Assembly: GCA_963792965.1 (NCBI GenBank)
Contig: CAWBYW010000004.1
Span: forward strand, 32,001 to 96,000
Origin: an uncultured delta proteobacterium
Lineage (GTDB): Bacteria; Desulfobacterota; Zymogenia; Zymogenales; Zymogenaceae
Reading direction: 5' to 3'
Length of the DNA: 64,000 nt
The notes under the pieces are model-generated. The model worked only from the letters and a program-made list of their open reading frames with translations. It ran no database searches and was not told the DNA's origin. This document shows positions 10,259 to 47,482 of this stretch, piece by piece (position 1 is the first letter of the stretch; each line of letters begins with the position of its first letter). Position numbers and translations under genes: made by a program.

Positions 10259-10264
10259 CGTGTA

Positions 10265-30393: not shown

Positions 30394-30714
30394 ATGGCCG
30401 GCATCGTGAAAAAAGGAAGCTGGGTTGAGATCTACCGGGTGATCCTCCCGCCGGGGGAGCGGGCTCCCCAGGTCCCGGATGACACAAAGAAAGTCCCGCT
30501 TGAGATGAAGGTCAAGGGATTCTTAGATGCGGACGCGCGGATCGGCGACGAGGTCCAGGTGATCACGGCCGCCGGCAGGGCCGTTGGTGGAAAGCTTTCG
30601 GTGGTCAATCCCGCGTACACCCACGGCTTTGGGGAGCCGATCCAGGAGCTTATCTCGATCGGCCGGGAGGCAAAGGAAATCCTGGCGGTCGCCCGCGCAG
30701 GGAAGACGAGGTAG
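30394..30714 (+). CDS. ortA: 2-amino-4-ketopentanoate thiolase alpha subunit
   Basis: KKGSWVEI, ERAPQVPDDTKKVPLEMKVKGFL, NPAYTHGFG. Confidence 0.93.
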   Translation: MAGIVKKGSWVEIYRVILPPGERAPQVPDDTKKVPLEMKVKGFLDADARIGDEVQVITAAGRAVGGKLSVVNPAYTHGFGEPIQELISIGREAKEILAVARAGKTR

Positions 30715-30719
30715 CGATA

Positions 30720-32126
30720 ATGGGAAAAATGGGATACGCCGAGGTGATGGCCAAAAAGGCCGAGGTGATGAAGAAATCCGTCGGCATCGACTACGACCTC
30801 TTTCGGACCGGCCCCCTCTCGTTTGACTACGAGGCGATGATGACCAAGACCGGCTACACGATCCAGGAGGCGGCCAGGATTCAGGAGGAGACGGCGGTGG
30901 GACATACCCCGCTGGTCGAGCTCAAGAACCTCACGGAGCTTGCCCGCGCGGCCGCACCAGTGGGAAAGGGGGCCCGGATCTTCGTCAAGGACGAGGCGCA
31001 GAACCCCTCGGGCTCGTTCAAGGACCGGCGCGCCTCCATCTCGGTCTACGAGGCGGCCAAGAAAGGGTACCCGGGGGTTTCGGCCGCCACGTCGGGCAAT
31101 TACGGGGCCGCCGTCGCCTCACAGGCGGCAAAGCGGAGCCTTGGATGCATCATCGTCCAGGAAGCCTTCGACTCGCGGGGCGTGGCCCAGCCGGAGATCG
31201 CGGAGAAGACGCGAGCCTGCGAGGCCTACGGCGCCGAGGTGATCAGGCTGAGCGTGGGCCCGGAGCTTTTCTACGTCTTTCTCACGATCCTCATGGAGAC
31301 CGGCTTTTTCAACGCCTCCCTCTATACGCCCTTCTCCGTCCTCGGCATCGAGACGCTCGGCCTCGAGATCGCGCGCGAGGTCAAGGAGCGGGAGGGGAGA
31401 CACCCCGACGTGGTGATCGCGACGCACGCGGGCGGCGGAAACGTCACCGGCACGGGGCGCGGGCTCCTCAAGGCCGGCGCCGACACGACGCAGCTAATCG
31501 CCGCCAGCGTCGACCTGTCGGGGCTGCACATGGCATCCGACACGGACTTCAACAGAAAATCGTTTACGACGGGCCACACCGGGTTCGGCATCCCGTTTGC
31601 CACGTGGCCCGACCGCGCGGACGTCCCCCGAAACGCCGCGCGGCCGCTCAGGTATATGGATAGATTCGTGACCGTCACCCAGGGGGAGGTCTTCTACATC
31701 ACCCAGTGCCTGGCGGAGCTGGAGGGGATGGAGCGCGGGCCGGCGGGCAACACCTCGCTGACGGCGGCGTTTGCCATAGCGAGGGAGCTGCCGAAGGATA
31801 AGATCATCGTGGTGCAGGAGACCGAGTATACCGGCGCGGGAAAGCACCCGCTTGCCCAGCTCAACCTCGCCAAGGCGATGGGGGTAAAGGTGCGGCGGGG
31901 AGACCCGCGAGAAAATATTCCCGGAAAGTCGATTGTTATCCCCGGGGAGCCCTCACAGATCTCCGTTGTCGACGTTGAGCTGGACCGGTTGCGCAGGTCG
32001 TATCTGAAAAACGCCAAAGAGGGGCTTGCCGGCGGGGAAAAGGCCAGTGACGTGGATATCGCATTTCTTGCCGCGGACACGAGGACGACCCCGGATTACG
32101 TGCGGGAGGTCCTCGGGACCCGATAG
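30720..32126 (+). CDS. ortB: 2-amino-4-ketopentanoate thiolase beta subunit (PLP)
   Basis: KDEAQNPSGSFKDRRA, ATSGNYG, ERGPAGN, QETEYTGAGKH. Confidence 0.94.
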   Translation: MGKMGYAEVMAKKAEVMKKSVGIDYDLFRTGPLSFDYEAMMTKTGYTIQEAARIQEETAVGHTPLVELKNLTELARAAAPVGKGARIFVKDEAQNPSGSFKDRRASISVYEAAKKGYPGVSAATSGNYGAAVASQAAKRSLGCIIVQEAFDSRGVAQPEIAEKTRACEAYGAEVIRLSVGPELFYVFLTILMETGFFNASLYTPFSVLGIETLGLEIAREVKEREGRHPDVVIATHAGGGNVTGTGRGLLKAGADTTQLIAASVDLSGLHMASDTDFNRKSFTTGHTGFGIPFATWPDRADVPRNAARPLRYMDRFVTVTQGEVFYITQCLAELEGMERGPAGNTSLTAAFAIARELPKDKIIVVQETEYTGAGKHPLAQLNLAKAMGVKVRRGDPRENIPGKSIVIPGEPSQISVVDVELDRLRRSYLKNAKEGLAGGEKASDVDIAFLAADTRTTPDYVREVLGTR

Positions 32127-32228: not shown

Positions 32229-32570
32229 ATGGAGAGACCCGATACGTATCAGGAAAGGCGGCGGCACCTGAAGAAGCTCTCCGACGACGAGCTGAAGAGC
32301 TATTTCTGGGAGCTGGTCAACAAGATCATCGAGCCCATCAAGAACGAGGCCGAGACCCATACCTCGCCCTCCATCGAGCGCTCGGTGCTGTTGCGGATGG
32401 GCTTTTCGAGCATCGAGTCCAAGGCGCTCGTCGCGATGATGACCGAGCGCGGGTTATTGGGTCACGGGGCGGGAAACCTCATCCTGAGGGTCGCGCGTAA
32501 ACATAACCTCGACGTCAGGAGCGCGGGGCTTGCCCTGATCAACTCAACCCATTGGGACGACGTGAAATGA
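32229..32570 (+). CDS. oraS: D-ornithine 4,5-aminomutase alpha subunit
   Basis: HTSPSIERSVLLRMGFSSIE, GLLGHGAG. Confidence 0.94.
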   Translation: MERPDTYQERRRHLKKLSDDELKSYFWELVNKIIEPIKNEAETHTSPSIERSVLLRMGFSSIESKALVAMMTERGLLGHGAGNLILRVARKHNLDVRSAGLALINSTHWDDVK

Positions 32571-34756
32571 AGCCGCTTGACCCGAACAAGAAGCTCGATC
32601 TGGACGAAATCCTCAAGGACCTCGAACACTACCGGCCGAGGCGCACGGGATGGACGTGGAGGGAACCGGTCAAAGATCAGAAGATCGGCCCCTTCACCTA
32701 TAAAGACACCACGAGGCCGCTTGCGCACTCCGTCCCGCTTCCCTCCGCGCACTATTTCGGCAACATCGACCCCCAGTGTGATTTTGTCATCACCACCGAG
32801 ATCGCCTCGGGCCGCTTCGAGGACGATATCCGGCGGATGCGGATGGCCGCCTGGCACGGCGCCGATCATATCATGGTGATCCGCACCACCGGCCAGTCGC
32901 ACTTCGACGGGCTCATCGAGGGAACTCCGGAGGGGGTGGGCGGCGTGCCCATCACCCGAAAGCAGGTTCGGGCAAGCAGGAAGGCGCTGGACGCCGTCGA
33001 GGACGAGGTGGGACGGCCCATCAACTTTCACTCGTACGTGAGCGGCGTGGCGGGTCCCGAGATCGCGGTCCTCTTCGCCGAGGAGGGGGTCAATGGGGCG
33101 CACCAAGACCCGCAGTATAACGTGCTCTACCGCAACATCAACATGCACCGCTCGTTTGTGGACGCCGCCTGCGCGAAGAAGATCATGGCCGACGCCCGCA
33201 TCCTGCAGATCGACGGCGCCCACAACGCCAACGCCACTGCGCGTGAGGCGTGGAAGGTCATGCCGGAGCTGTTGGTCCAGCACGGGATAAACTGCGCCTT
33301 TTCAGAAGCGGTCGGGATGAAAAGGGAGCTGATCGCGCTTTCCACGGTGCCCCCCACCGCGCCGCCTGCGCCCAAGCTTGCCATCGACCTCCCATATGCC
33401 GTGGCGCTCAGGGATTTCTTCGAGGGCTTCAAGATGCGCGCCCAGCAGAACACGCGATATATGGAGGCCGACATGGCCGAGGCGACCATCACCCACGTGC
33501 TGGATACCCTCATCTCCCGCCTCACCTCGGCCGACATCCAGAGCACCATCACGCCCGACGAGGGACGCAACGTCCCCTGGCACTACAATAACATCCTCGG
33601 CGTTAACACCGCCCGCCAGACACTCATGGGGGTCGACGGACTTTCGGACCTGGTCGAGCTCAAGAAGGACGGCGTCCTTTCGGAGAAGGTCCGAGAGATC
33701 AAGGAGCGCGCGATACTGTTTCTCGAGGAGATCATCGAGATGGGCGGCTATTTTGCCGCGGTCCAGCAGGGCTCCTTCGTGGACTCCGGGCAGTTCCCCG
33801 AGCGGCGGGGCGACGGCATCTCCCGCGACCCCGCAGGTGGTGTGGCGGCGGGCACGATCGTCCGGCGCGAGGCCGACTATATGGCCCCGGTCTGCAGCCA
33901 CTTCGGGTACAATAAGCTTCCCCCCGGTAACACAAAGCCGTGCGACCCGATCGACGGCTGTACCCTCTGCCGGCCGGAGAAGATCGTCTACATCGACGAG
34001 CTGGACCGGGAGGATAACGTCGCGCGCCGCCTGACGGCGCCGAGGAGAGAAGCGGAGGAGGGCCTCATCCGTCCGGAGGTGGAGTGGGCCGGCGACGGCA
34101 TCGTCGTCGTGACGATATTTGTCCCGGAATCGCTCGAGGTGGCGGAGGCGGCGGCACTGGCAATGGCGGGAAAGATGGGAATCAGTGGGCCCGAGGTCAT
34201 CTCGCGGCGAATGATCCACCCGGCGGAGGGGAGCCTCTTTGAGGTCAAGGGAAGGCTGCAATACGCCGTAAGACGGGACGAGCTGGTCATCCCCAAGCGG
34301 GAGGAGCTTTTGTCCGAGGAGGAGATCACGGCGTTTGTCCGCGCGGGAAAGGTCTCGCTGGTGGCGGCCACGGTCGGCGAGGACGAGCACTCGGTGGGGA
34401 TGCGCGAGATCATCGACATCAAGCACGGCGGTGTCGAGAAATACGGTTTTATCTGCCACTACCTCGGCACCTCCGTCCCGATCGGCAAGGTGCTGGACGC
34501 GGCCCAGGAGACGGGATCGGCGATCGTCTTGATCTCCACGATCATCTCGCACAACGACATCCACCGCGCCAACATGAAGCGGCTCAGCGACCTGGCCGTG
34601 GAGCGGGGGATCAGGGACAAGCTGATCCTGATCGCCGGAGGCACCCAGGTCACCAACGACACGGCCCTTTCGTGTGGGCTTGACGCCGGATTCGGCAGGG
34701 GGACGAAGGGGCATCACGTCGCGAGCTTTATCGTGAAGAAGCTGCGAAAGAAATAG
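32567..34756 (+). CDS. oraE: D-ornithine 4,5-aminomutase beta subunit (AdoCbl + PLP)
   Basis: TTEIASGRFEDDIRRMRMAAWHGADH; B12 motif EDEHSVG; PLP lysine in IDIKHGG. Confidence 0.96.
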   Translation: MKPLDPNKKLDLDEILKDLEHYRPRRTGWTWREPVKDQKIGPFTYKDTTRPLAHSVPLPSAHYFGNIDPQCDFVITTEIASGRFEDDIRRMRMAAWHGADHIMVIRTTGQSHFDGLIEGTPEGVGGVPITRKQVRASRKALDAVEDEVGRPINFHSYVSGVAGPEIAVLFAEEGVNGAHQDPQYNVLYRNINMHRSFVDAACAKKIMADARILQIDGAHNANATAREAWKVMPELLVQHGINCAFSEAVGMKRELIALSTVPPTAPPAPKLAIDLPYAVALRDFFEGFKMRAQQNTRYMEADMAEATITHVLDTLISRLTSADIQSTITPDEGRNVPWHYNNILGVNTARQTLMGVDGLSDLVELKKDGVLSEKVREIKERAILFLEEIIEMGGYFAAVQQGSFVDSGQFPERRGDGISRDPAGGVAAGTIVRREADYMAPVCSHFGYNKLPPGNTKPCDPIDGCTLCRPEKIVYIDELDREDNVARRLTAPRREAEEGLIRPEVEWAGDGIVVVTIFVPESLEVAEAAALAMAGKMGISGPEVISRRMIHPAEGSLFEVKGRLQYAVRRDELVIPKREELLSEEEITAFVRAGKVSLVAATVGEDEHSVGMREIIDIKHGGVEKYGFICHYLGTSVPIGKVLDAAQETGSAIVLISTIISHNDIHRANMKRLSDLAVERGIRDKLILIAGGTQVTNDTALSCGLDAGFGRGTKGHHVASFIVKKLRKK

Positions 34757-34815
34757 GCGGGGAGGACTCCCTTCACCTTTTCAGGGGGGCAATGGACGGC
34801 ACGTTGAGGGATACC

Positions 34816-35535
34816 ATGTCTGATCTCATCGCCGTTACGCTGGATACCGATTGGGCCCATGACGAAGTCATCGCGTATACGATGGATATACTCAACGAGC
34901 ACGGTGTCCGCGCGACCTATTTTGCCACGAACGAATCACCGGTGCTGAAAAAGGTCGACGGGAGCCGGTTCGAGATCGGGATACACCCTGATTTCAATGG
35001 CACACTGGACCACGAGTCGAAAATAAAGGAGCTGCTCTCAATCTACCCCGACGCCAAGGGGGTGAGATCCCATACGCTTTTCCATTCGTGGAGCATCATG
35101 GATCTCTTCAAGAAGTATGGCTTTGTGTACGACTCAAATATCATCATGCCCTATTTTCCCGGGTTGAGGCCCATCGTCTGGTTCAATAACGTCGTGAGGA
35201 TTCCGTACTTCTGGGAGGACGAGGTCCATCTACTCTTCGGGAAGCAGTGCGAGCCGCGCACGCTGATGATGGGTGAGGCCGGCCTCAAGATATACAATTT
35301 TCATCCGATACATATATTCCTCAACACCGAAGACCTCGGGAGAATTGAAGCGGCACGGGGTTCATTTCAACGCCCGGACAAGCTTGAAAAACATAGAAAC
35401 ACGCGGACGAGGGGCTGTAAAGATATTTTCCTCGACGTTTTGGGCCGCGTGAGGGCCGATCAGGGCAAGACATATCGGATGATCGATATCGCCTCCGATT
35501 TTCGCGCTTCGGCGGCCGAATCCCCCTCGGATTGA
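34816..35535 (+). CDS. Polysaccharide-deacetylase-fold protein (WbmS-like)
   Basis: TLDTDWA, ATYFAT, EIGIHPDF, GVRSH, PYFWED, NFHPIHIFLN. Confidence 0.75.
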   Translation: MSDLIAVTLDTDWAHDEVIAYTMDILNEHGVRATYFATNESPVLKKVDGSRFEIGIHPDFNGTLDHESKIKELLSIYPDAKGVRSHTLFHSWSIMDLFKKYGFVYDSNIIMPYFPGLRPIVWFNNVVRIPYFWEDEVHLLFGKQCEPRTLMMGEAGLKIYNFHPIHIFLNTEDLGRIEAARGSFQRPDKLEKHRNTRTRGCKDIFLDVLGRVRADQGKTYRMIDIASDFRASAAESPSD

Positions 35536-35589: not shown

Positions 35590-36946
35590 GTGAAAAGCCC
35601 CGATATCCTTGTCGCCGAGATCGGCAGCACCATAACGAAGCTCTCGGCCTTCGGGGGCATCGACGGCATAAAACCGTCGTTCCTCGGCCAGGGGGTCGCG
35701 CTGACGACCGTCGCCGAGGGGGACGTTACCGTCGGGCTCGTGCGCGCCGGCGATGATTTGAGATCGCGGTGTGGGGTCGACACGGGGAGAGTGGACGCCG
35801 AAGGGGCGGGACGAGAGGTCCTGCTATTGGCCGTCTCCTCGGCGGCGGGGGGACTGCGCATGACCGTGCACGGCCTTACCCGGGATATGACCCTGAGAGC
35901 GGCGCGGGAGGCGTCCCTCGGTGCGGGGGCGGTCGTCGTTTTTTCGACGGCGGGAGAAATTACCGCGGGCGACATCAATGAGGTCAGGCGTCTCTCCCCG
36001 AACCTGATGCTCCTTTCGGGGGGCGTAGACTATGGTGAGCGAGAGATCGTCGTGAAGAACGCCCGGGCGCTGGCCGGCGTCGGCGCTGGCGTCCCGGTCA
36101 TATACGCGGGCAATGTCGGCGCCAGGGGTGAGAGTCTCGGCGATACTGAGGGATGCGGGGGTCGAGCTCTTCGTCACCGAGAACGTCTATCCCGATATCG
36201 ACGAGCTCAACGTCGTGCCGGTACGCCGGATTATCCAGGAGGTCTTCGCCAAGCACATCATCACCGCGCCGGGTATGGACAAGGTAAAGGAAATGGCCGG
36301 CGGCTCCGTGATGCCGACGCCGGGGGCGGTATTGAAGGCCGCGGAGCTCCTCTTTGATGAGATCGGGGACGTTGCTGTGGTGGACGTGGGGGGGGCGACT
36401 ACCGACGTCCACTCGGTTACGGAGGGATCGGAGCAGCTCAGGGCAATGGCCGTCTCTCCCGAGCCCCTCTCCAAGAGGACGGTCGAGGGCGACCTGGGCG
36501 TATTCATCAACGCGCGGCAGATCGTCGAGGAATCGGGGGGAGGCATCGGAGCACTCGACGGCGTCGTGGCGCTGCCCAGAACCGACGCCGAAAGGGAAAA
36601 AACCGCGATCCTCACCAGGTGGGCGGTCGATCTCTCGCTCTGGCGGCACGCCGGCTCCATCAAGGTCTCTTACGGCACCTACGGGAGGAGCGAGATCGTG
36701 GAGGGGAGGGACCTGACGATGGTGAAGTATCTCATTGGAACGGGCGGGGCCCTCACGAGGATTGCCGGCGGAGCCGCGATCCTTCAGGGGATCCGCCGCG
36801 ATCCCCACAAGAGAAAGCTCCTTCCGCCGGCCGAGGCGCGCGTGCTCATCGACTCGGACTACATCATGGCCGCGGCGGGAATCCTCGGGGAGCACCGGAG
36901 ACAGGCCGCAACGGCCCTGCTGCTCAATAGCTTAGGGTTAGGATAA
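35590..36946 (+). CDS. GlmL/MutL-like reactivating factor for the B12 aminomutase, frameshifted near 36125
   Basis: VAEIGSTIT, SSAAGGLRM, LSGGVDYG, PTPGAV, DVGGATTDVHSV, KRTVEGDLG. Confidence 0.9.
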
Positions 36947-36949
36947 ACG

Positions 36950-38965
36950 ATGTCGGGACCGTACGTTACTATAGATCTGGCGAAAATCGAAGAGAACGCC
37001 CGTGTCATCACGGGGCTGTGTATGCGGCACGGCATCGAGGTCACGGGGGTCACGAAGGTGACGTGCGGGATACCCCACGTCGCCCGGGCGATGCTGGCGG
37101 GCGGGGTCACGGGGATCGGGGAGTCCCGCATGGAAAACATCCGCCGCCTCAAGGTCAACGGGATCAACGCCCCGATCATGCTGCTCAGGATACCGCCGCT
37201 TTCGGCCGTGGATGAGATCGTGACCGCGGTGGATGTCAGCCTCAACTCCGAGCTTTCGGTCATCAGGGCGCTTTCCGAGGCGGCGGCGCGGCGGGGGCTC
37301 GTGCACGATATCATCCTCATGGTGGACCTCGGCGACTTGAGAGAGGGGATCTGGCCCGACGACCTGATCGGGCTCGTCGAAAAGGCCGTGAAGCTTTCCG
37401 GGGTACGGATCGTGGGGCTGGGGGCCAACCTCTCCTGTTACGGTGGGATTATCCCGAGTTGCGGCAACATGGAGGCGCTGGTGCACTACGCTGAGGAGTT
37501 AGAGCGCCGCTTCGGGCTCTCGTTGAAGTACATCTCCGCCGGCAATTCGAGCTCGCTACTGCTCGTCGAGGCCGGCGGGATGCCCGAACGGGTGAACCAC
37601 CTTCGGATCGGCGAGGGAATCCTCCTCGGGAGAGAGACGGTCGAGCGGCGCCCGTGGCCCGGTACGTCCCAGGACGCCTTTGTGCTGCGCGCGGAGGTCA
37701 TCGAGCTCAAGGAAAAGCCGTCGGTTCCCATCGGGGAGCGGGGGCAGGACGCCTTCGGGGGCGTGCCGGATTTCGGCGAGGGGCACGGGGCGGAGCGGCT
37801 GGAGGGCGCACGGCGAGAGATGGTACGGGCGATCCTCAACGTCGGGCGTGAGGACGTCATCGTGGAGGGAATGACCCCCCTGGACACGCGCCTTACTATT
37901 CTCGGCGCATCGAGCGACCACCTCATCGTCGATGTAACGAAGGCGGTGGGCGATGTGACCCTCGGCGGTGAGCTCGGCTTTCTCATGAACTACGGCGCGC
38001 TCCTTGCCGCCATGACCTCGTCGTATGTGGAAAAGAGGCCCATTCTCAAGGATGAGGACAAGATGAATAGCCGCCCTATCGCGATCATCGGCGTGCCGAG
38101 CTGGATCGGCGCGCTCGAGCCGGGTACGGATGCCGCGCCCCGTGCGCTCCGGGACGCGGGGTTGGTCACCAAACTTGCCGCCCTCGGGCTCTCAGTCGAG
38201 GACAGGATGAATGTATCGGTAAGCGACACGATCCGCGGGGACGACTTCGGGGAAAATGCCGCCGAGGTCGCCCGTATCGCCCTTGGGACGGCGGACGTCG
38301 TCCAACAGGCGATAAAAGACGACTGCATCCCGCTTGTCCTCGGAGGAGATCACAGCACAAGCCTCGGTGTCCTGGTGGGGCTTTTCCGGAGCCTGTCTCC
38401 GTTCGGCCTGATCTGGTTTGACGCCCACGGCGATTTTGTCGTTCCCGATGAGAAGGATGAGAAGAGGATCAGCCGCATGGTGTTGGCCTTGTCCCTCGGC
38501 CACGGCGACGCGAGGCTCAACAGGCTGGGCGGGAGTTCGCCCTTGGTCTCTCCGGAAAACGTCGTCATCGTGGGACTGAGGGACGTGGGGCAAGATGAGG
38601 CAAAGCGCCTGTCCGAATCCGGCGTTACGATCTTCACGATGGAGGACATTGACGCCCTCGGCATGAAGGAAGTTGTCTATCGTGGGCTACGCGCGGCGGG
38701 GACGGGAACAAAGGGGATACACGTGAGCCTCGATATCGACGTCGTGGATACCCAGGCGGCGCCGGGTGTACGGTTGCCGGTAGCGGGGGGGATCACCTAC
38801 CGGGAGACGCATCTGGCCATGGAGCTCCTCTCGCAGTCCGGTTTGATCCGTTCGATGGATCTGGTCGGGGTGGATATGGAGGCCGATCCGGAGGGGAGGA
38901 CCGCCCAAGTCGCCCTTGAGTTTATCCTCTCGGCGTTCGGGAAGAAGATCCTTGGAAGGCTATGA
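36950..38965 (+). CDS. orr: Ornithine racemase (Orr) fused to a C-terminal arginase/ureohydrolase-fold domain
   Basis: aa 1-365: GVTKV (PLP Lys), DLGDLREG, NLSCYGG, NHLRIGE, GASSDH. From aa 372: IIGVP, GGDHS, DAHGD, SLDID, GGITYRE. Confidence 0.88.
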   Translation: MSGPYVTIDLAKIEENARVITGLCMRHGIEVTGVTKVTCGIPHVARAMLAGGVTGIGESRMENIRRLKVNGINAPIMLLRIPPLSAVDEIVTAVDVSLNSELSVIRALSEAAARRGLVHDIILMVDLGDLREGIWPDDLIGLVEKAVKLSGVRIVGLGANLSCYGGIIPSCGNMEALVHYAEELERRFGLSLKYISAGNSSSLLLVEAGGMPERVNHLRIGEGILLGRETVERRPWPGTSQDAFVLRAEVIELKEKPSVPIGERGQDAFGGVPDFGEGHGAERLEGARREMVRAILNVGREDVIVEGMTPLDTRLTILGASSDHLIVDVTKAVGDVTLGGELGFLMNYGALLAAMTSSYVEKRPILKDEDKMNSRPIAIIGVPSWIGALEPGTDAAPRALRDAGLVTKLAALGLSVEDRMNVSVSDTIRGDDFGENAAEVARIALGTADVVQQAIKDDCIPLVLGGDHSTSLGVLVGLFRSLSPFGLIWFDAHGDFVVPDEKDEKRISRMVLALSLGHGDARLNRLGGSSPLVSPENVVIVGLRDVGQDEAKRLSESGVTIFTMEDIDALGMKEVVYRGLRAAGTGTKGIHVSLDIDVVDTQAAPGVRLPVAGGITYRETHLAMELLSQSGLIRSMDLVGVDMEADPEGRTAQVALEFILSAFGKKILGRL

Positions 38966-39807
38966 GACAACCGATTGACGAGACCATCGTATCTCTCGAG
39001 GATCTGGGGTTGACTCAGTACGAGGCGAAGGTGTATCTTGCGTTGTTGGCCGACCACCCCGCCACCGCCTACACGATTTCGCGCCGCTCGGGGGTACCGC
39101 ACTCGCGGGTTTATGAGGTCGCCCGGAGGCTGATGGCCAAGGGGTTTGTGGTTCGCTCGGAGACGAACCCGGATCGCTTCTCGCCGCTCTCCCCGCGCGA
39201 GCTGGTCGAGCGGCTGGCCGGGGAGCACGAGCGGGTGATAGCGGAACTGAAACAGCGGCTGGAAACGATCCCCTTCCGTTCGGATTTCGACCCGGTATGG
39301 AACATAAACGAACGGACCGACGCCATAAAGAAGGCCGTAGAAATCATCGGGGGCGCGCGGCACAAGATCTATATCGGCGTATGGGACGAGGAGCTGGGCG
39401 AGCTTATCGAAGACCTGAGGACAGCGCACGGACGCGGGGTACAGATCGTCTTCCTCATATACGGACGGACGACGGTGGATTTCGGCCGGGCTTTCTACCA
39501 CAACACCGGCCATATCGAGGACGTGGTGTACCTCGGCAGGAGCATCGATATCGTCGCGGATTCCGAGGCGGCGGTCAGCGGGAGGCTCGGGGCGGAGGTG
39601 AAAAACGGCGCGGGCAAGAACGGCGACCGGACCGAATACCTCCCCTGTCAAGTCATCTGGACGAAGAACCGCGGGCTCATCAACGTCATAGAGGGCTACA
39701 TTATTCACGATTTTTATCTCGCCGAGATATTCGGCGTCTTTCAAAAGGAGATCGAAGAGGTATTCGGGGCCAACATGACGGCGTTGCGGAAAAAATATCG
39801 GGGATAA
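38962..39807 (+). CDS. TrmB-family transcriptional regulator
   Basis: LGLTQYEAKVYLALL...SRRSGVPHSRVYEV winged HTH plus an effector-binding domain. Confidence 0.9.
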   Translation: MRQPIDETIVSLEDLGLTQYEAKVYLALLADHPATAYTISRRSGVPHSRVYEVARRLMAKGFVVRSETNPDRFSPLSPRELVERLAGEHERVIAELKQRLETIPFRSDFDPVWNINERTDAIKKAVEIIGGARHKIYIGVWDEELGELIEDLRTAHGRGVQIVFLIYGRTTVDFGRAFYHNTGHIEDVVYLGRSIDIVADSEAAVSGRLGAEVKNGAGKNGDRTEYLPCQVIWTKNRGLINVIEGYIIHDFYLAEIFGVFQKEIEEVFGANMTALRKKYRG

Positions 39808-39824: not shown

Positions 39825-40988
39825 ATGGAAAAAACGAAAGATCACCTGACCTTTATGGAGGCAGCGTCCACCGTTGCGGGATACGGGATCGGCGCGGGGA
39901 TCATGGCCGTGCCGTACCTTGCCGTTCGGTCGGGCGTGTTGCCGCTGGTCGGCATTATGGTGGTGGCCTATCTGATCAGCATCCTGTTTCACCTGATGAT
40001 CGTCGACATGGTGATGCGCGACGGGGGCAAGACGCAGCTCATGGAGGTGTTGGCAAAATACCTCTTTACGGGATGGGGCGGAAAACTATTCACCTGGTTA
40101 TTCTTTATCCTGATCGTCTTTGCCTTTTTCGGAACCCTCATTACCTACATCGTGGGAGGAGGGGAGGCGCTCAACGGCACGTTTGACGTGCCGCTCGTGC
40201 TGGGCTTCTTTATTACCTATCTTTTGGCCGCGGTGGTCGTCTTCTTCGGCCTGAAAGCGGTCGGCGTCGTGGAAAAATTTTCAGTCATCGGTATCGCCGT
40301 CGTCGTTTCCGCCCTTCTGATCCTTTCCCTGTTCAGACCCTTCCACCTGACGATGCTCGTCAAAGGTGCGGGGGTCAAGGAGGCGCTGGCGCTGTACGGG
40401 ATGATCATGTTTTCCTTTTATTCGATGTTTTCCGTGCCACAGGCCGTCAAGGGACTCGCGTGGAAGCCGAGGCTTGCCCCCTGGGCCGTGGTGACCGGTA
40501 TCGGGATCACCTTCTTCACGGTGCTCCTCATCACGCTCGCCGCGATGGGGGTCTCCAAGGAAGTAACGAAGATCGCCATCCAGGGCTGGTCGGACGCCAT
40601 CGGACCATTGGCGGCATACTTCGGGACGATATTCGTGCTGTTGGCGTTCCTCACGAGCTTCTGGTCCATCTCCCTGGCGCTGGCCGACGTCCTCCACGAG
40701 CGTTTGCGGTGGAACGATAAGCTCTGCTGGCTCTTGGCGACGCTCCCGTGCCTGCTGGTATCTTTTTTCAAGCTGCAGAATTTTCTCGAATATCTCAGGC
40801 TCACCGGAGGGGTGATCGGGATACTCCTGGTCGTCATAATGGTCCCGGCGTATATCTCCGTCAAGAAGAAGGGTGAGGTCAAGAAGCCGGCCTGGAGCCT
40901 CGGCTATTTTGGCGGCGGTGTTTTCTTGTGGATCGTCGTCATCGGCTTTCTGCTCATGGCGGTGGGCTCCGCGGTCCCGATCAAATAA
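39825..40988 (+). CDS. Amino-acid permease (Trp/Tyr permease-like, APC superfamily)
   Basis: AGYGIGAGIMAVPY TM1 motif, AFLTSFWS, about 11 TM segments; RBS GAGGAG. Confidence 0.82.
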   Translation: MEKTKDHLTFMEAASTVAGYGIGAGIMAVPYLAVRSGVLPLVGIMVVAYLISILFHLMIVDMVMRDGGKTQLMEVLAKYLFTGWGGKLFTWLFFILIVFAFFGTLITYIVGGGEALNGTFDVPLVLGFFITYLLAAVVVFFGLKAVGVVEKFSVIGIAVVVSALLILSLFRPFHLTMLVKGAGVKEALALYGMIMFSFYSMFSVPQAVKGLAWKPRLAPWAVVTGIGITFFTVLLITLAAMGVSKEVTKIAIQGWSDAIGPLAAYFGTIFVLLAFLTSFWSISLALADVLHERLRWNDKLCWLLATLPCLLVSFFKLQNFLEYLRLTGGVIGILLVVIMVPAYISVKKKGEVKKPAWSLGYFGGGVFLWIVVIGFLLMAVGSAVPIK

Positions 40989-41134
40989 GCCCGTCTCCCG
41001 ATGGGAGGCGCGCGCGGTGATAAAAGTCTTGTGGCCGCGCGGCCAAGCGCGGTAGTTTATGAGCATGGTGCAGGGATGAATTTCGCGTGCACAGGCGGTC
41101 CTATTTTCAGAACGAACGACGTGAAAGGAGCGGT

Positions 41135-42451
41135 ATGAAAAAGAAAATTATCATACTCGGTGCGGCGGGAAGGGATTTCCATAACTTCAACGTCCGGTTC
41201 CGCGACAACGAATCGTATGAGGTCGTGGCGTTTACCGCAACGCAGATCCCCAATATCGAAGGACGGGTCTACCCGACGGAGCTGGCGGGAAAGCTCTATC
41301 CCAGGGGAATCCCCATCCGTCCCGAGGACGAGATGGAGCGGCTGATCGAGAAGTCAGAGATTGACGCCGCGATCTTCTCCTACAGCGACGTCCCGCACAC
41401 CTACGTGATGCACATCGCCTCGCGGGTGATTGCCGCCGGCGCCGATTTCACACTCCTGTCGGCAAAGAGCACCATGCTCAAGTCGACGAAACCGGTCATC
41501 TCGGTGACCGCCGTACGCACAGGGAGCGGCAAGAGCCAGACCACGCGAAAAGTGTGCGAGACGCTCAGGGAGATGGGAAAGCGGGTCGTGGCGGTCCGGC
41601 ACCCGATGCCCTACGGCGACCTGAAGAAGCAGATCGTCCAGCGATTTGCCGAATACAAGGACTTTGACATCCACGACATCACCATAGAGGAGCGCGAGGA
41701 GTACGAGCCGCTTGTCGAGATGGGGATCGTCGTATATGCGGGCGTCGACTATGAGAAGATACTCAGGGCGGCGGAAAAGGAGGCCGACGTGGTGGTATGG
41801 GACGGCGGCAACAACGACACGTCGTTTTTCGCATCGGACCTCTCGGTGGTGGTATTTGACCCGCACCGCGCGGGTCACGAGCTTACCTATCACCCGGGAG
41901 AGGTGAACCTGCGGCTGGCGGATGTGGCGGTGATCAATAAGGTGGACACGGCGGAAAAACAGAACATCGAGATCGTCAGGGCCAACATAGAAAGAATCAA
42001 CCCGAAGGCGCGGATCGTGTCGGCGAATTCGCCCGTGAGCATCGCCGACCCGAATGCGGTAAAGGGAAAGCGCGTGCTTGTCGTGGAAGACGGCCCGACG
42101 CTCACCCACGGCGAGATGAAATTCGGGGCGGGGGTCATCGCGGCCCGGAAATTCGGAGCATCAGAGCTCATGGATCCGAAGCCGCATGCGGTCGGCTCCA
42201 TCAAACAGGCCTTCGTAAAGTATCCCCACATCGAGAACCTCCTTCCCGCCATCGGATACGGAGAACAACAGATGAAGGATCTGGCCGCGACCATCAACGC
42301 CACCGACTGCGACGTCGTCATGCTGGCTACGCCCATAGACCTCACCAAGGTCATCACCATCAAGAGGCCGACGGTGCGCGTGCGCTACGGCTACGGGGAC
42401 GCGGGCTCGCCGACGCTCGGGCAAATCGTGAAAGAGCGATTCGGGAAGTAG
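41135..42451 (+). CDS. arcE: Arginine synthetase ArcE-like protein (cyclic 2,3-diphosphoglycerate synthetase-like P-loop family)
   Basis: GAAGRDFHNFN, FTATQIP, AVRTGSGKSQT, RHPMPYG, EEREEYE, WDGGNND, EDGPTLTHG; next to carbamate kinase. Confidence 0.82.
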   Translation: MKKKIIILGAAGRDFHNFNVRFRDNESYEVVAFTATQIPNIEGRVYPTELAGKLYPRGIPIRPEDEMERLIEKSEIDAAIFSYSDVPHTYVMHIASRVIAAGADFTLLSAKSTMLKSTKPVISVTAVRTGSGKSQTTRKVCETLREMGKRVVAVRHPMPYGDLKKQIVQRFAEYKDFDIHDITIEEREEYEPLVEMGIVVYAGVDYEKILRAAEKEADVVVWDGGNNDTSFFASDLSVVVFDPHRAGHELTYHPGEVNLRLADVAVINKVDTAEKQNIEIVRANIERINPKARIVSANSPVSIADPNAVKGKRVLVVEDGPTLTHGEMKFGAGVIAARKFGASELMDPKPHAVGSIKQAFVKYPHIENLLPAIGYGEQQMKDLAATINATDCDVVMLATPIDLTKVITIKRPTVRVRYGYGDAGSPTLGQIVKERFGK

Positions 42452-42587
42452 GGATTGTCACAGACGAGGGCGCGTGTGTGCGGCCGGGGGCGGCGAGAAC
42501 GTAGACCATAGGGACCGGGGGCGGTGGATTCACTCCCCCGGCAGGTTTTTCCCCGAGCTCTCATTGGATATGCAGGGGGAGGACGGT

Positions 42588-43550
42588 ATGAGCAGGAAAA
42601 AACGTGCCGGGACGGCGGTGGTGGCGCTGGGCGGAAACGCCATCGTCAAGGAGAAGGAAGCGGGGACCATCGCCCAGCAGTTCCGGAACACCCGGACGTC
42701 GCTGGTAGGGGTAATGGGCCTCGTTAGGGAGGGCTGGGAGCTGCTCATCACGCACGGCAACGGCCCCCAGGTGGGAAACCGCCTGATCCTCAACGAGCTT
42801 GCCCACGAGATGGTGCCGGACCTGCCGCTCGGGGTGCTCTGCGGCGACACCGAGGGGGCGATGGGCTACATGATCCAGCAGTCGATGTTCAATAAGCTCA
42901 TTTTCCACTCGATACAGAAACCGGTCGTGACGGTCATCACCCAGACGGTCGTCGATTCCGAGGACCTGTCGATGAGACACCCCACAAAGCCGGTCGGCCC
43001 GTTCTTTTTGCGCGAGGAGGCCGAGCGCCTTACGCAGGAAAAGGGGCTGCTTTTCATGGAAGACGCAGGGAGGGGCTTCAGACAGGTGGTGCCGTCGCCC
43101 TATCCGCTTAAGATCGTCGAGATCGACGTGATCCGGCGGCTCCTGGCATCCGGGGTCATCGTGGTGGCCATCGGCGGCGGGGGGATCCCCGTGGTTCTCC
43201 AGCCCGATCGGACGCTCGAGGGGATAGACTGCATCATCGACAAGGACCTCGCCTCGAGCCTTGCCGCGCGCGAGCTCGGGGCGTCCCTCTTTGTCATGGT
43301 AACCGGCGTAGACCGAGTGGCGCTCAACTACCGAAAACCAAACCAGGTGGACCTTGACAGGATGTCGGTGGACGAGGCCCGGCGCTATCAGGACGAAGGC
43401 CACTTCTTCGCGGGGAGCATGGGGCCCAAGATCAGGGCGGCCCTCGAATACTTAGAGGCGATACCGAAGGGCCGGGTCCTCATCACGTCCCCCGAGCGGC
43501 TCAAAGACGCCGTGGCGGGCGATGGGGGGACGACGATCTACCGGGAGTGA
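42588..43550 (+). CDS. arcC: Carbamate kinase
   Basis: ALGGNA, THGNGPQVG, PTKPVGPF, GGGGIPV, IDKD, GSMGPK. Confidence 0.96.
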   Translation: MSRKKRAGTAVVALGGNAIVKEKEAGTIAQQFRNTRTSLVGVMGLVREGWELLITHGNGPQVGNRLILNELAHEMVPDLPLGVLCGDTEGAMGYMIQQSMFNKLIFHSIQKPVVTVITQTVVDSEDLSMRHPTKPVGPFFLREEAERLTQEKGLLFMEDAGRGFRQVVPSPYPLKIVEIDVIRRLLASGVIVVAIGGGGIPVVLQPDRTLEGIDCIIDKDLASSLAARELGASLFVMVTGVDRVALNYRKPNQVDLDRMSVDEARRYQDEGHFFAGSMGPKIRAALEYLEAIPKGRVLITSPERLKDAVAGDGGTTIYRE

Positions 43551-43959: not shown

Positions 43960-45453
43960 ATGGCCATCAAGACGAAAGAGCAGTACATCCAGAGCATCAG
44001 GTCGCTCGCACGCAACGCCTTTATCCTCGGCAGCCGCGTGGATAATATCGTCGATCACCCCATGAACCGAGCGGCCGTCAATTCGATAGCCGAGAGCTTC
44101 GATATGGCCGCGGATCCGAAGACGAGGCCCGTTGCGGGGGCGGTCTCTACCCTCACCAATGAGCCGATAAATCGCTACAATGCGCTCAATTTCTCCGTTG
44201 ACGACCTGGTCAAGCGCGGCGAGATGGAGCGAATGATCGGCTACCGGACGGCCCAGGGATGTCCCCGGGCGACCGGGCTTGACGCCATCAACGCCGTCTA
44301 CAGCGTCGCGTACGATGCGGACCAGAAACATCGGACGGACTACCTTGGGCGTTTCAAGAAATGGCTCACCGCCGTCCATGACAACGACCTTGCCGTCAGC
44401 GGGGCGATGACCGATGTCAAGGGTGACCGATCAAAGCGCCCCGCCGCCCAGGACGATCCGGACATGTACCTGCACGTCATTAAGAGGACCAAGGACGGGG
44501 TCGTCGTGCGCGGGGCCAAGGCTCACCAGACCGGCGCCGTCAACTGCCACGAGCACCTGGTCATGCCGACGCGGGGCATGAGAGAGGACGAAAAAGACTA
44601 TGCGATCGCCTTCGCGGTCCCCGTCGACGCGTCCGGACTCTACCATATCTACGGCCGCCAGCCGTCCGACACCAGGAAGCTCGAGGAGGGCGCCTCCATG
44701 GACCTGGGGATGGGGAGGTTCGGTGGGTGCGAAACCCTCATGGTATTCGATGACGTCTTTATCCCGACGGAACGAATCTTCCTCTCGGGCGAGGTAGAGT
44801 TCACGTGGCCGCTCGTCAACAGGTTCGCAATCGGGCACCGCTCTTCCTACGGAGTCGCGGGGGCGGGCGTGGGTGACGTGGCAATCGGCGCAGCGGTGGC
44901 CATCGCCCAGGCAAACGGCGTCATCCACGACAAAATCATCTGGGACAAGATCGCGGACCTGATTATCATGAGCGAGACGCTCTACGGCCTGGGCCTTTCG
45001 TCCATGCTCAAGGGGAGGCCGACCCCCTCGGGGATCTATTTCGCGGACTATGTCCTGGGCGGCGTGGCCAAGTACCAGGCGACGATCATCCCCTTCCAGA
45101 TGTGCCGGATCGCACAGGATATCTGTGGAGGGCTGGTGGCAACGATGCCAAGCGAGTCGGACTTGAAGAACGAAGAGGTCGGCCCCTTCATCGAAAAATA
45201 CCTGAGGGGAGTCTCCGCCATCCCCACCGAGCACAGGATGAGGCTGGTCAGGCTGATCGAATGTATGAGCCTGGGGACCTTCTCCGCCGATCTCCTCACG
45301 ATGGGGCTCCACGGCGCCGGATCGCCTTATCCCCAGAAGATGATGGTCCTTGCGGACTACAAGGACAAGATCCCCAAGCTGGTGGCGCTTGCGATGTATC
45401 ACGCGGGGATCACCGATGAGTTTACGTATTCCGAAACCGAGGGAGGAAAATAG
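43960..45453 (+). CDS. 4-hydroxybutyryl-CoA dehydratase (AbfD)/HpaB-family flavoprotein, divergent
   Basis: GAMTDVKGDRS, DPDMYLH, RGAKAHQTG, YGRQPSDTR, FDDVFIP, HGAGSP. Confidence 0.85.
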   Translation: MAIKTKEQYIQSIRSLARNAFILGSRVDNIVDHPMNRAAVNSIAESFDMAADPKTRPVAGAVSTLTNEPINRYNALNFSVDDLVKRGEMERMIGYRTAQGCPRATGLDAINAVYSVAYDADQKHRTDYLGRFKKWLTAVHDNDLAVSGAMTDVKGDRSKRPAAQDDPDMYLHVIKRTKDGVVVRGAKAHQTGAVNCHEHLVMPTRGMREDEKDYAIAFAVPVDASGLYHIYGRQPSDTRKLEEGASMDLGMGRFGGCETLMVFDDVFIPTERIFLSGEVEFTWPLVNRFAIGHRSSYGVAGAGVGDVAIGAAVAIAQANGVIHDKIIWDKIADLIIMSETLYGLGLSSMLKGRPTPSGIYFADYVLGGVAKYQATIIPFQMCRIAQDICGGLVATMPSESDLKNEEVGPFIEKYLRGVSAIPTEHRMRLVRLIECMSLGTFSADLLTMGLHGAGSPYPQKMMVLADYKDKIPKLVALAMYHAGITDEFTYSETEGGK

Positions 45454-47244
45454 TGAAGGAAAACCTCGCCGCTCTCTTTTTCGATCAAGTCACAAAGAAG
45501 AGAGACAAGACGGCCCTCATGAGAAAAGAGGGGGGGCGCTTTGTCGGGATTTCGTGGAGCGACTACGGCCGTGCCGTCAGAAGAGCCGCCGGCGCGCTCA
45601 AACGAATGGGCGTTCAGAGGGGCGATCGGGTGGCGATCTTCAGCTACAACTCCGCCGAATGGGCCACGATGGACCTCGCCGCCCTTTCGTGCGGCGCTAT
45701 CGTCGTGCCCATATACTTCAAGAGCAGCCCGTCTCAGGTCGCCTATATCCTGAAGGATTCGGGGGCAAAGGTGATCTACGTCGGGGACGCCGCCCAGCTG
45801 GGCGCCGTGCTGCCTCAGGCAAAGGGGCTGCCGGTGCTGTCGGCGGTCATCGCTCCCGACGGGATCGTCGATGGACAGAAGGCGGGGAAGGTGAGGGTCG
45901 TTCCGTTCTCGGAAACCCAGACCGAAGAAGATGAGCGGGTCTTCGAAAAAGACCTGGCGCCGCATCTAAACGATATCGAGGCCGGGGATGTCGCCACGAT
46001 CGTCTATACCTCCGGGACAACGGGCGAGCCCAAGGGCGTGATGCTGACCCATAAGAACCTGATCGCCAACGTCCGCGCGGACATGGCCGTGGTAGAGCTC
46101 ACCGACGCCGATCTGGGCCTCTCGTTCCTCCCGACGAGCCACGTCCTGGACCGGGTGGTCGTCCACTACATGAGCGTCATCGCGGGGGGGACGATCGCGT
46201 ACGCCCAGAGCCTGGAGACGGTGCTGGCCGATGTCGCCGGCACGCATCCGACGGCGATGTGCGGGGTGCCGCGCATGTTCGAGAAGATCTATAACGCCAT
46301 TACCGACCGCGCCGAGGCGGGTCCCCCGACGGCCCGGCGTTTGTTTTTCTGGGCAGAAGACGTGGGGAGAGAGTTCGTATTGATGAGAAAGGAGAAGAAA
46401 GAGACCCGGGTTGGTGTTGAGGCTCAAATATCTGATCGCCGATCTTCTCGTCTTCTCGAAGGTCAGGAAGTTTTTCGGCGGCAGGATGCGGCTCTTCGCC
46501 TCGGGCGGCGCCCACCTCAGGGAAGACATCGACCTCTTCTTCCGCGCGGTCAAAATCCCCATCATGCACGGTTACGGGCTGACGGAGGCGACCTGCACCG
46601 TCACGCTCAACACGAAGGAGGATTTCATGCCCGAGACCCTCGGCAGGCCCCTGCCGGGCGTGGAGGTGAAGATCGCCCCGGACGGCGAGATCCTCCTCCG
46701 GGGAGACATCGTAATGAAGGGCTACTTCAACAGGCCCGAGGAGACCCGGGAGGCCCTCAGGGAGGGCTGGCTCCATACCGGGGACGTCGGACACCTCACC
46801 GGGGACGGGTATCTGGTCATGACCGACCGCAAGAAGGACATCCTCTCGACCTCGGGCGGGAAAAATATCTCCCCGCAGAAGATCGAGACGCTGCTGCTGC
46901 TGTCGCGGTTTATCGAGCAGGCGGTCATCATCGCGGACGGGAGGAGGTTCGTATCGGCGCTCATCGTCCCGAATTTCGCCGAGCTGTCGGTCTTCTGCAC
47001 AGGACGCGGCCTGAAAGTTGCCGGAAAGCGGGAGACCTGCCGGATGGGCGAGATCGAGACGCTCTTCGGCGAGATCATCGACGAAGTCAACAAGGACCTG
47101 GAGGGGTACGAGAGGATCAGGAAATTCGCCCTTTTGCCCGACGAGTTCACCGTCGATTCCGGCGACCTCACCTCCACGCTCAAGGTGAAACGGCGCGTCA
47201 TCAACGAGAAATACAGGGATATCATCGAGGGACTCTATCGGTAG
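45453..47244 (+). CDS. Long-chain fatty acid-CoA ligase, frameshifted near 46410
   Basis: YTSGTTGEPKG, GYGLTE, GWLHTGD, DRKKD, STLKVKR. Confidence 0.92.
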
Positions 47245-47428
47245 TAGAGAGAGGGGGGAGGGGGCGTGTCTGTCCCCCGTATCCGGGGGAACGGCAAAGG
47301 GCCGCCGTCACCACGTCCGGCTCAACCGACCCTTCTCTTGAGTCAGGGGTTGGGGATAATAGTAAAAAGAGAGAAAAGGGGGTCACGTATCCGTTTATCT
47401 CTTATTGCCGTTACTCTCGATCAGCGAT

Positions 47429-47482
47429 CTTACCGTGGCAATACCATTTCGCGCGGCACTTGCGCCGTTGCCGGATCTACCT
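47429..47482 (+). repeat. Repeat family A, copy 1 (about 54 bp)
   Basis: CTTACCGTGGCAATACCATTTCGCGCGGCACTTGCGCCGTTGCCGGATCTACCT; similar to 49112-49166. Confidence 0.7.

Follow-up and report, generated by a model that had tools for sequence, protein, structure and literature searches.

A predicted ornithine racemase fused to an arginase-fold domain with intact metal ligands and a replaced substrate site

The fused gene and its distribution

The stretch of DNA analysed here (the window, 64,000 nucleotides of contig CAWBYW010000004.1) is from an uncultured delta proteobacterium of the Zymogenaceae, and the gene of interest within it joins a predicted ornithine racemase (orr) sequence to an arginase-fold sequence. 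This orr::arginase-fold gene (P0001) occupies 36950..38965 on the plus strand and, as a first-pass annotation made from the sequence had reported, it is a single open reading frame (ORF), starting with ATG and encoding 671 aa. Pfam identifies Ala_racemase_N at residues 8-224 (6.6e-27) and Arginase at residues 377-662 (1.2e-56). The NCBIfam ornithine racemase model Orr (NF040742, 405.6 bits) matches residues 4-363, corresponding to model positions 2-350 of 351, and the NCBIfam arginase model (TIGR01229, 189.5 bits) matches residues 379-667, corresponding to model positions 2-299 of 300. As both of these models are covered nearly end to end, the protein has two complete domains, with a joint of approximately 13 residues between them (Table 1). 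This linker is the least conserved stretch of the protein, with 38-62 % identity within the window clade (P0001-P0011, the 11 sequences of at least 75 % identity), and at residues 368-373 the AlphaFold2 (AF2) model has a predicted local distance difference test score (pLDDT) below 50. For the full chain, mean pLDDT is 85.3 and the predicted template modelling score (pTM) is 0.57.

The fusion is real and is widespread. In a protein search over 5.8 billion sequences there were 711 matches at E <= 0.001 among 8000 scored candidates, 120 of which were listed; among the matches listed, 120 out of 120 carry both Pfam domains (46-80 % identity, 576-753 aa). From a search of species-representative genomes 80 loci were kept, including 39 that match into the arginase part; these are from Thermodesulfobacteriota, Spirochaetota, many cultured Mesorhizobium, Aminobacter, Labrys, Shinella, Actinocorallia, and Sumerlaeaceae. 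A locus in an Aminipila metagenome-assembled genome (L036) was initially read as a 40th fused match, proved to have separate genes, and is excluded from the fused counts. There, a tandem pair of agmatinase-like genes is followed by a separate orr (9689-12637), which links ureohydrolase and orr in the other gene order.

Close relatives of the window bear the names Candidatus Zymogenaceae and Ca. Zymogenus saltonus. All nine same-family genomes hold the fused gene without an internal stop, with an uninterrupted match to residues 1-670 in seven, and the gene was found in none of 21 genomes sampled from the other families of the phylum. The first-pass annotation had proposed looking for the same two-domain architecture in related genomes, and it is present in more than 100 homologues as well as in these nine. 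Broken copies of the fused gene are carried by the close relatives L001 and G009.

It had also been cautioned that a single indel error could create the fusion from two genes, based on an ATG at the junction preceded by GAGGA and an out-of-frame TGA. All of these are present in the sequence (in-frame ATG at 38063-38065, GAGGA at 38054-38058, TGA at 38053-38055), and the caution was reasonable since several genes are frameshifted in this assembly. Split between two frames are or-4 (near 36130, a break that none of the metagenome contigs matched to the window covers), an ADP-forming acetyl-CoA synthetase (125-2090), an acyl-CoA dehydrogenase (11395-12931), and an agmatinase-like gene on contig C6 (49022-49785), which points to assembly indel errors or genuine pseudogenes. 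Elsewhere, as described below, orr and arginase are also found unfused, with the stop of one overlapping the start of the other. However, the caution is refuted by the 120 listed homologues, by the nine family genomes, and by a 250-base peat metagenome contig that covers 37925-38169, across the junction, with 21 substitutions and no gaps. A search for matching sequencing runs gave four, which hold 5-7 % of the sampled words. The Met at the junction is poorly conserved, being present in 8 out of 12 window-clade members, in none of the 14 sequences of the sister clade, and in 11 out of 120 overall. Two genes joined by an assembly error is therefore an explanation with almost nothing left to it.

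Conservation and loss in the two domains

The N-terminal domain is, as predicted from its sequence, the ornithine racemase of the operon, and racemisation is its predicted activity. It has the features of a Fold III pyridoxal 5′-phosphate (PLP) domain with a Schiff-base Lys36, this residue being present in 158 out of 160 fused sequences and falling in a gap in the other two. In place of the alanine racemase Tyr is C163, within NLSCYGG, in 159 out of 160 fused sequences, and the cofactor residues R131, R219, and N160 are each present in 159 out of 160. According to a study of OrnR (PMC13397332), this enzyme uses Lys36 and Cys164, with the Cys present in all 945 network sequences, and its cofactor residues are Arg129, Arg220, and Asn161. 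Orr/OrnR, as in the catabolic clade of Acetoanaerobium sticklandii and C. difficile and in Salmonella STM2358, have the same Fold III domain and the equivalents of these residues (PMC13397332). As with catabolic Orr, the window gene is within an ord-ortAB-oraSE operon, and the position of orr in the order ord-ortA-ortB-oraS-oraE-(or-4) is found in the window and in loci L002, L004, L008, and L013. To this the window protein adds a C-terminal arginase-fold domain, of 295 residues, and the words arginase and fusion are both absent from the OrnR study.

The score of the N-terminal domain against NF040742 is below the curated cut-off of 480 bits. Unfused Orr are below it as well (L150, 398.4 bits; L151, 393 bits; L036, 420 bits), therefore the cut-off appears to be tuned to a narrower group.

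The metal ligands of arginase are His101, Asp124, His126, Asp128, Asp232, and Asp234 (rat/human numbering). In addition, rat His141 is catalytic, rat Glu277 binds the guanidinium, rat Asn130, Ser137, Asn139, and Asp183 bind the alpha-amino and carboxylate groups of arginine, and Thr246 (rat/human numbering) is a further active-site residue. These residues were mapped onto the window protein from a residue-by-residue alignment of the C-terminal domain to the arginase of Bacillus caldovelox, 1CEV (E 8.8e-64). In Foldseek comparisons of the AF2 model with Bacillus arginases, target-normalised TM is 0.94-0.97 and rmsd is 1.3-1.8 A, with 39-40 % identity.

All six ligands of the binuclear site are kept in the window protein (H468, D491, H493, D495, D595, and D597), within GGDHS (465), DAHGD (491), and SLDID (593). 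The alignment to 1CEV agrees here with the first-pass annotation, which had listed these three motifs and three substitutions in the substrate site that are also seen: SGNIHGM to EKRISRM, GVGTP to GVRLP, and VEVNP to VGVDM. It adds two further losses, DVNT to DFVV, in which the Asn is lost, and RSLDEGE to RDVGQDE, in which the Asp is lost. At the substrate-binding and catalytic positions of arginase, the window protein has V497, E504, R506, S508, G547, L609, and G640. Of these, S508 and G640 are at the positions of the catalytic His141 and the guanidinium-binding Glu277, both of which are 100 % conserved in 113 standalone arginases, and V497, E504, R506, and G547 are at those of Asn130, Ser137, Asn139, and Asp183, conserved in 94-100 %. 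The C-terminal domain is a true arginase fold, descended from arginase, that most likely no longer cleaves arginine.

An arginase that is still active, channelling arginine to L-ornithine and on to D-ornithine, is accordingly a very improbable reading of the fused protein. The fold, the six ligands, and the level of identity to Bacillus arginases would suit it, as would the canonical site that is kept in the basal fused proteins P0099 and P0101; in addition, within the genome (3.36 Mb, 42 contigs, 88.85 % complete) no arginase-family gene was found beyond the fused domain, except for the broken agmatinase-like gene. Against it, the equivalents of Asn130, Ser137, Asn139, His141, Asp183, Thr246, and Glu277, invariant or nearly so in the standalone arginases, have all been replaced, and the TIGR01229 score does not reach the cut-off of 227.6 bits. 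Nor was a urease above cut-off, for use of the urea, found in this incomplete genome. Channelling of arginine to D-ornithine, one of the roles raised in the first-pass annotation, suits only the basal canonical-site fusions P0099 and P0101 and not the window protein.

Comparison across the family shows how far the metal site has been lost in other fused proteins. The mapping of columns was controlled with 120 standalone arginase matches to the C-terminal domain, of which 113 have the canonical ..NHDEGTE, two have ..NHDESLE, and five are pieces of fused genes, found on contigs 1.0-2.5 kb long, one of these pieces starting with the C-terminus of Orr. Among true standalone relatives, the nearest are no more than 49 % identical and are ordinary arginases. 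The six ligands are kept in 13 out of the 120 listed fused proteins, these being the window clade (P0001-P0011), P0099, and P0101. The other 107 have lost at least one ligand, which the window protein has not: 14 of them, forming the sister clade, read DDHD[D/G]D and in the remainder two to five ligands are missing (PSHSDD, PSYGDS, HDTSCA, and others). Among named genomes, no fused ORF out of 39 has all six; ligands have been lost in 38 of these, including RDIAST in Mesorhizobium and NSSSSD in Oceanispirochaeta, and the other, from L001, is a truncated ORF that reads HDHD--. In L008 no ligands are left, the gene is in the same operon slot, and arginine deiminase (ADI) and ornithine transcarbamoylase (OTC) genes are adjacent.

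In a FastTree phylogeny of 277 C-terminal domains, all of the fused proteins form one clade (0.989), containing an inner clade of 159 (0.999; FastTree also gave 1.0) without the arginase residues. The equivalents of Asn130, Gly138, Asn139, His141, Gly142, Asp183, Gly245, Thr246, Glu277, and Asn279 are invariant in the 113 standalone arginases and are present, as N497, G505, N506, H508, G509, D547, G608, T609, E640, and N642 equivalents, in no more than 19 % of the inner-clade domains. The basal fused proteins P0083, P0101, and P0099 keep canonical residues, and the inner clade contains several branches in which ligands were lost independently. In an IQ-TREE phylogeny of 40 taxa, UFBoot is 96 for the inner clade, 98 for the inner clade with the P0099/P0101 group, 92 for all fused proteins, and 100 for the window clade with its DDHDDD sister. 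A single fusion event is unproven, because the standalone arginases P0167 and P0185 group with P0099. The window clade is the least-decayed branch of the inner clade.

The phylogeny of the Orr domain is largely congruent, with 153 out of 156 inner-clade N-terminal domains in one clade (0.777), in which three standalone Orr are nested. Two of these, L006 and L009, have no remnant of the C-terminal domain within 2.5 kb downstream, therefore it has been lost secondarily; for the third, L048, the contig ends there.

Selection on the C-terminal domain was investigated within the window clade. Invariant positions number 240 out of 363 in the N-terminal domain and 159 out of 295 in the C-terminal domain. 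All six of the ligands are invariant, as are two of the ten former pocket positions (E550 and G640); variation is seen at 504 (E/N/D), 506 (R/K/I), 508 (S/C/E), and 609 (L/Q/E/I/D/N). Rates of substitution were calculated with a Nei-Gojobori script for same-family genome pairs with unsaturated dS (0.12-0.64), giving omega of 0.09-0.17 for the arginase-fold domain and 0.12-0.15 for the racemase domain. For pairs that include the window gene, dS is 0.9-1.4, near saturation, and omega is only consistent with these values. Pairs with L002 are left out, since oraE had been taken there in place of the fused gene. Given the low omega, the invariant ligands, and the varying pocket, the domain and its metal site are kept by selection and the old pocket is not.

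Some positions in the window clade and its sister are conserved with a residue other than that of the arginase consensus. W385, P391, N436, R509, T620, G640, and F658 are present in 24-25 out of 25 of these sequences and four of them are at the rim of the former active site. Other positions, in the C-terminal half, are conserved in at least 85 % of the 159 inner-clade domains: GLR544, E550, T563, D566, D568, G571, GG614, R618-E619, H621, M624-E625, S661, G664-K665, and I667. This whole set is common to real arginases, and within it R618 (98 %), E619 (99 %), G664 (99 %), and K665 (96 %) are at a putative subunit interface, made up of the human Arg255/Glu256 equivalents and the C-terminal tail. 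E619 is the equivalent of human Glu256 (with a six-residue offset in the 1CEV alignment), which reportedly has a role in the oligomeric structure of human arginase.

These data bear on whether the window-clade domain could be an active binuclear metallohydrolase that acts upon an amidine, ureido, or acyl compound other than arginine to yield ornithine, making the protein bifunctional. The invariance of the six ligands in all 11 clade members, the low omega, the conserved but different residues at the pocket rim (W385, P391, R509, and G640), and the confidently predicted fold are in its favour, and the loss of the guanidinium-pairing Glu would suit a neutral substrate. However, former pocket positions 504, 506, 508, and 609 differ between sequences sharing at least 70 % identity, and the remodelled loop, residues 501-510, has the lowest confidence of the domain (pLDDT 74). 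In the sister clade, from the same family, His468 is Asp in 14 out of 14 and Asp595 is Gly in 4 out of 14, and in other branches between two and five ligands are gone; the operon position is nevertheless kept in the four loci examined, L002 (of the sister type), L004, L008, and L013. Such an activity on a new substrate is therefore considered unlikely. A related alternative for the window clade (Candidatus Zymogenaceae), likewise doubtful, is that the domain has been repurposed, with the binuclear centre under selection and the rim rebuilt, and either hydrolyses a non-guanidino precursor of ornithine or acts as a metal-dependent switch of the racemase.

Elsewhere, orr and arginase are found as separate neighbours. 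When metagenome contigs were searched with P0101, 80 loci were kept and 14 match both domains; eight of these are fused and P0101's own locus was not found among the contigs. In the other six (L117, L118, L120, L150, L151, and L159), the stop of orr overlaps the start of an arginase gene of 284-287 aa with a canonical site. GC content is 24-27 % in the three such loci measured (L117, L150, and L151), and the neighbours in L150 and L151 are SpoVB-like flippase and MurT-like genes, outside of a fermentation operon. These unfused pairs may supply the cell envelope, and not fermentation, with D-ornithine made from arginine. In a FastTree phylogeny the arginases of the six pairs are sister to the fused clade (0.891), and Ser-[Ile/Leu/Val] at columns 608-609, common to them and to the fused domains, is the sole further hint of a link. 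In IQ-TREE (40 taxa), their joint clade with the fused proteins has UFBoot of 14, with a long branch, and this sister relationship is not relied upon.

Fused genes with fully degenerate arginase domains are also present outside of the ornithine-fermentation operon, in L038 (Mesorhizobium sp. AaZ16) and L022 (Actinocorallia longicatena). L038 has GalE, a PseB-like dehydratase, a sugar transferase, and ALA synthase as neighbours; in L022, an MFS efflux transporter alone among the neighbours matched a family. The racemase may have another role in these.

Operon context and arginine metabolism

The fused gene follows the ornithine-fermentation genes of the window directly (Table 1). Between oraE and or-4 is a WbmS-like gene; at this position there is an unrelated 371-aa ORF in L004 and nothing in L002. 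The or-4 gene is intact in L002, L004, and L008. In the window NF040744 is matched at positions 2-168 in one ORF (35590-36357) and at 171-447 in another (36113-36946), the pieces scoring 205.3 and 332.6 bits, where the cut-off is 600. After carbamate kinase, at 43960-47507 on the same strand, are an HpaB-like flavin monooxygenase family gene and a gene for a 684-aa AMP-binding enzyme.

Table 1. Positions in the window of the fused gene's features and of the neighbouring genes
Feature	Position	Strand	Remarks
ord	29346-30392	+	NCBIfam equivalog, 488 bits, above cut-off
ortA	30394-30714	+	NCBIfam equivalog, 132.6 bits, above cut-off
ortB	30720-32126	+	NCBIfam equivalog, 796.5 bits, above cut-off
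Small ORF in oraS position	32229-32570	+	No family match
oraE	32552-34756	+	NCBIfam equivalog, 1308.7 bits, above cut-off
WbmS-like gene ('polysaccharide deacetylase')	34792..35535	+	PF22537; Pfam 5.7e-53; no NCBIfam match
GlmL-like or-4	35590..36946	+	NF040744; two frames, break near 36130
Predicted ornithine racemase (Fold III PLP) domain	36950..38038	+	Residues 1-363; NF040742
PLP Lys36 codon	37055-37057	+	Within racemase domain
Catalytic Cys163 codon	37436-37438	+	Within racemase domain
Linker	38039..38077	+	Residues 364-376; contains in-frame ATG at 38063
Arginase-fold domain	38078..38962	+	Residues 377-671; 1CEV alignment, Foldseek, family comparison
Metal-ligand codons	H468 38351-38353; D597 38738-38740	+	Other ligands D491, H493, D495, D595
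TrmB-family regulator	38962..39807	+	Start overlaps fused-gene stop; Pfam TrmB 1.2e-23
Amino-acid permease (Trp_Tyr_perm)	39852..40988	+	Pfam 2.7e-11; listed ORF from 39297, match from residue 186
Candidate arginine synthetase (ArcE-like P-loop protein)	41087..42451	+	454 aa; weak cobW/MeaB matches
Carbamate kinase (arcC)	42474..43550	+	PRK12352, 341.4 bits, cut-off 266

The P-loop ORF directly upstream of carbamate kinase belongs to no named family and has relatives in clusters named 'putative GTPase' and a weak match to cyclic 2,3-DPG synthetase (9.3e-7); NCBIfam has no ArcE model. As described, ArcE (TK2200 of T. kodakarensis) is annotated as hypothetical or as a putative GTPase, is often near arcC, and with OTC and carbamate kinase yields two ATP per arginine (PMC11032458). 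The window ORF fits this description and is a candidate arginine synthetase. An OTC gene is present on contig C18, within an argD-argF-argG cluster (383.8 bits, cut-off 280.85), and arcA was not found in the genome (88.85 % complete).

Hydrolysis of citrulline by the C-terminal domain, suggested in the first-pass annotation as a stand-in for a missing OTC, thus loses its premise. The carbamate kinase beside the candidate ArcE, together with the genomic OTC, argues against a citrullinase and, for this version of the new-substrate alternative, in favour of phosphorolysis; hydrolysis of citrulline would deprive carbamate kinase of carbamoyl phosphate. Likewise, ATP would be wasted by an active arginase if the ArcE route operates, and silencing such an arginase would make sense where arginine is converted to ornithine through ATP-yielding steps.

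Proposed role and known counterparts

With moderate confidence, the protein is interpreted as a racemase with an accessory arginase-fold domain, non-catalytic and probably metal-binding, that serves oligomerisation or stability. The architecture, its spread, the residue losses, the purifying selection, and the operon context on which this is built are observed directly; from them it would follow that the C-terminal domain binds metal, oligomerises, and does not catalyse. A dead domain is favoured because the inner fused clade is without the arginase residues, and mostly without the ligands as well, in an unchanged operon slot.

In the proposed mechanism, the Fold III domain would convert L-ornithine to D-ornithine with Lys36 and Cys163 as the acid-base pair, and the D-ornithine would feed the B12-dependent D-ornithine 4,5-aminomutase encoded upstream, for oxidative ornithine fermentation. 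L-ornithine would be supplied by uptake or from arginine, via the candidate ArcE, OTC, and carbamate kinase, and not by the C-terminal domain. That domain, with the fold, the six ligands, and the putative subunit-holding residues kept and every residue that binds or activates arginine lost, would tie racemase dimers into a larger assembly through arginase-type oligomerisation. Fold III enzymes are obligate dimers (PMC13397332) and arginases are trimers or hexamers, of which the monomers are still active (PMC11271267); a larger assembly is therefore expected where the two are joined in one chain. A pair of metals, bound by the ligands that remain, may stabilise the fold. In arginase, the manganese cluster is reportedly linked to thermostability (PDB entry 3RLA).

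Several points weigh against this interpretation. The pTM of the AF2 model leaves the arrangement of the two domains undefined. The conserved but different residues, four of which are at the rim, could indicate a site that is remodelled rather than abandoned, and six invariant ligands with constraint like that of the racemase domain are also expected of an active metalloenzyme. Furthermore, the C-terminal domain is dispensable in some lineages (L006 and L009), so a structural role is not universal.

The first-pass annotation had also raised a catalytically dead sensor domain. That it is dead is favoured by the losses of residues and ligands in the inner clade; as a sensor, the domain would tune the racemase allosterically on binding a metabolite, possibly through the metals, in the former active site. 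The ligands and the constraint on the domain agree with this, and regulation is plausible in that OrnR kinetics are sigmoid in one direction (PMC13397332). However, the arginase residues for the amino-acid moiety are lost and variable, and the metal site is absent in most family members. Sensing is therefore improbable.

The accessory-domain interpretation has consequences for annotation. Public records label these fused proteins 'arginase', 'arginase family protein', or 'alanine racemase', so that metabolic reconstructions would wrongly assign an arginase route, when the evidence indicates the ornithine racemase of the operon and not an arginase; ornithine racemase is the annotation that the protein should carry. 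Within one family there is a graded series, from a canonical site, through loss of the substrate residues only, as in the window, to loss of ligands in several branches and loss of the whole domain; the unfused orr-arginase pairs may be at its start. The window domain is most readily understood as a pseudo-arginase partway through this decay. Such a series is a rare chance to ask why a dead enzyme domain is kept, and it would make the birth of a pseudoenzyme directly testable. No paper on this racemase-arginase fusion was found in the literature searched, the coverage of which excludes subscription journals.

Arginase-fold proteins of several kinds can be compared with the window domain. Bacillus arginases (1CEV/2CEV and 6DKT) share with it a fold, all six ligands, and the Arg-Glu pair of the putative interface, but their substrate-binding and catalytic residues are intact and those of the window domain, which is fused to a racemase, are all replaced. 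Of the features of pseudo-ureohydrolases, the window domain has the loss of catalytic residues in a fold kept under selection and does not have the loss of ligands. An arginase-like protein of Trypanosoma brucei (Hai et al., 2015) is said to be without the manganese cluster; it too would be an arginase fold away from catalysis but, unlike the window domain, it is eukaryotic and standalone and its ligands are lost.

The ornithine decarboxylase (ODC) of Fusobacterium nucleatum is likewise an ornithine-using PLP enzyme with a C-terminal arginase/agmatinase-like domain, judged to be inactive; on its own, the decarboxylase domain matches the fusion in activity (PMC8503589). There, however, the partner is an AAT-fold decarboxylase rather than a Fold III racemase, two of the ligand Asp are lost rather than all six ligands being kept, and the fusion is limited to Fusobacteriaceae, whereas the racemase fusion spans several phyla. 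MetCb of the metformin hydrolase MetCaCb is an arginase-family pseudoenzyme that acts as a binding and stabilising partner in a hexamer (PMC11271267), and its structure (8ryi_C) has a weak sequence match to the window domain (2.5e-8). MetCb is a separate, metal-free subunit beside an active ureohydrolase and has lost five of the six ligands; the window domain is fused to an unrelated enzyme, with its ligands intact. Dead partners with an arginase fold are thus known, and the window protein departs from them in its Fold III racemase partner, in the spread of the fusion over several phyla, and in the six ligands kept in this clade.

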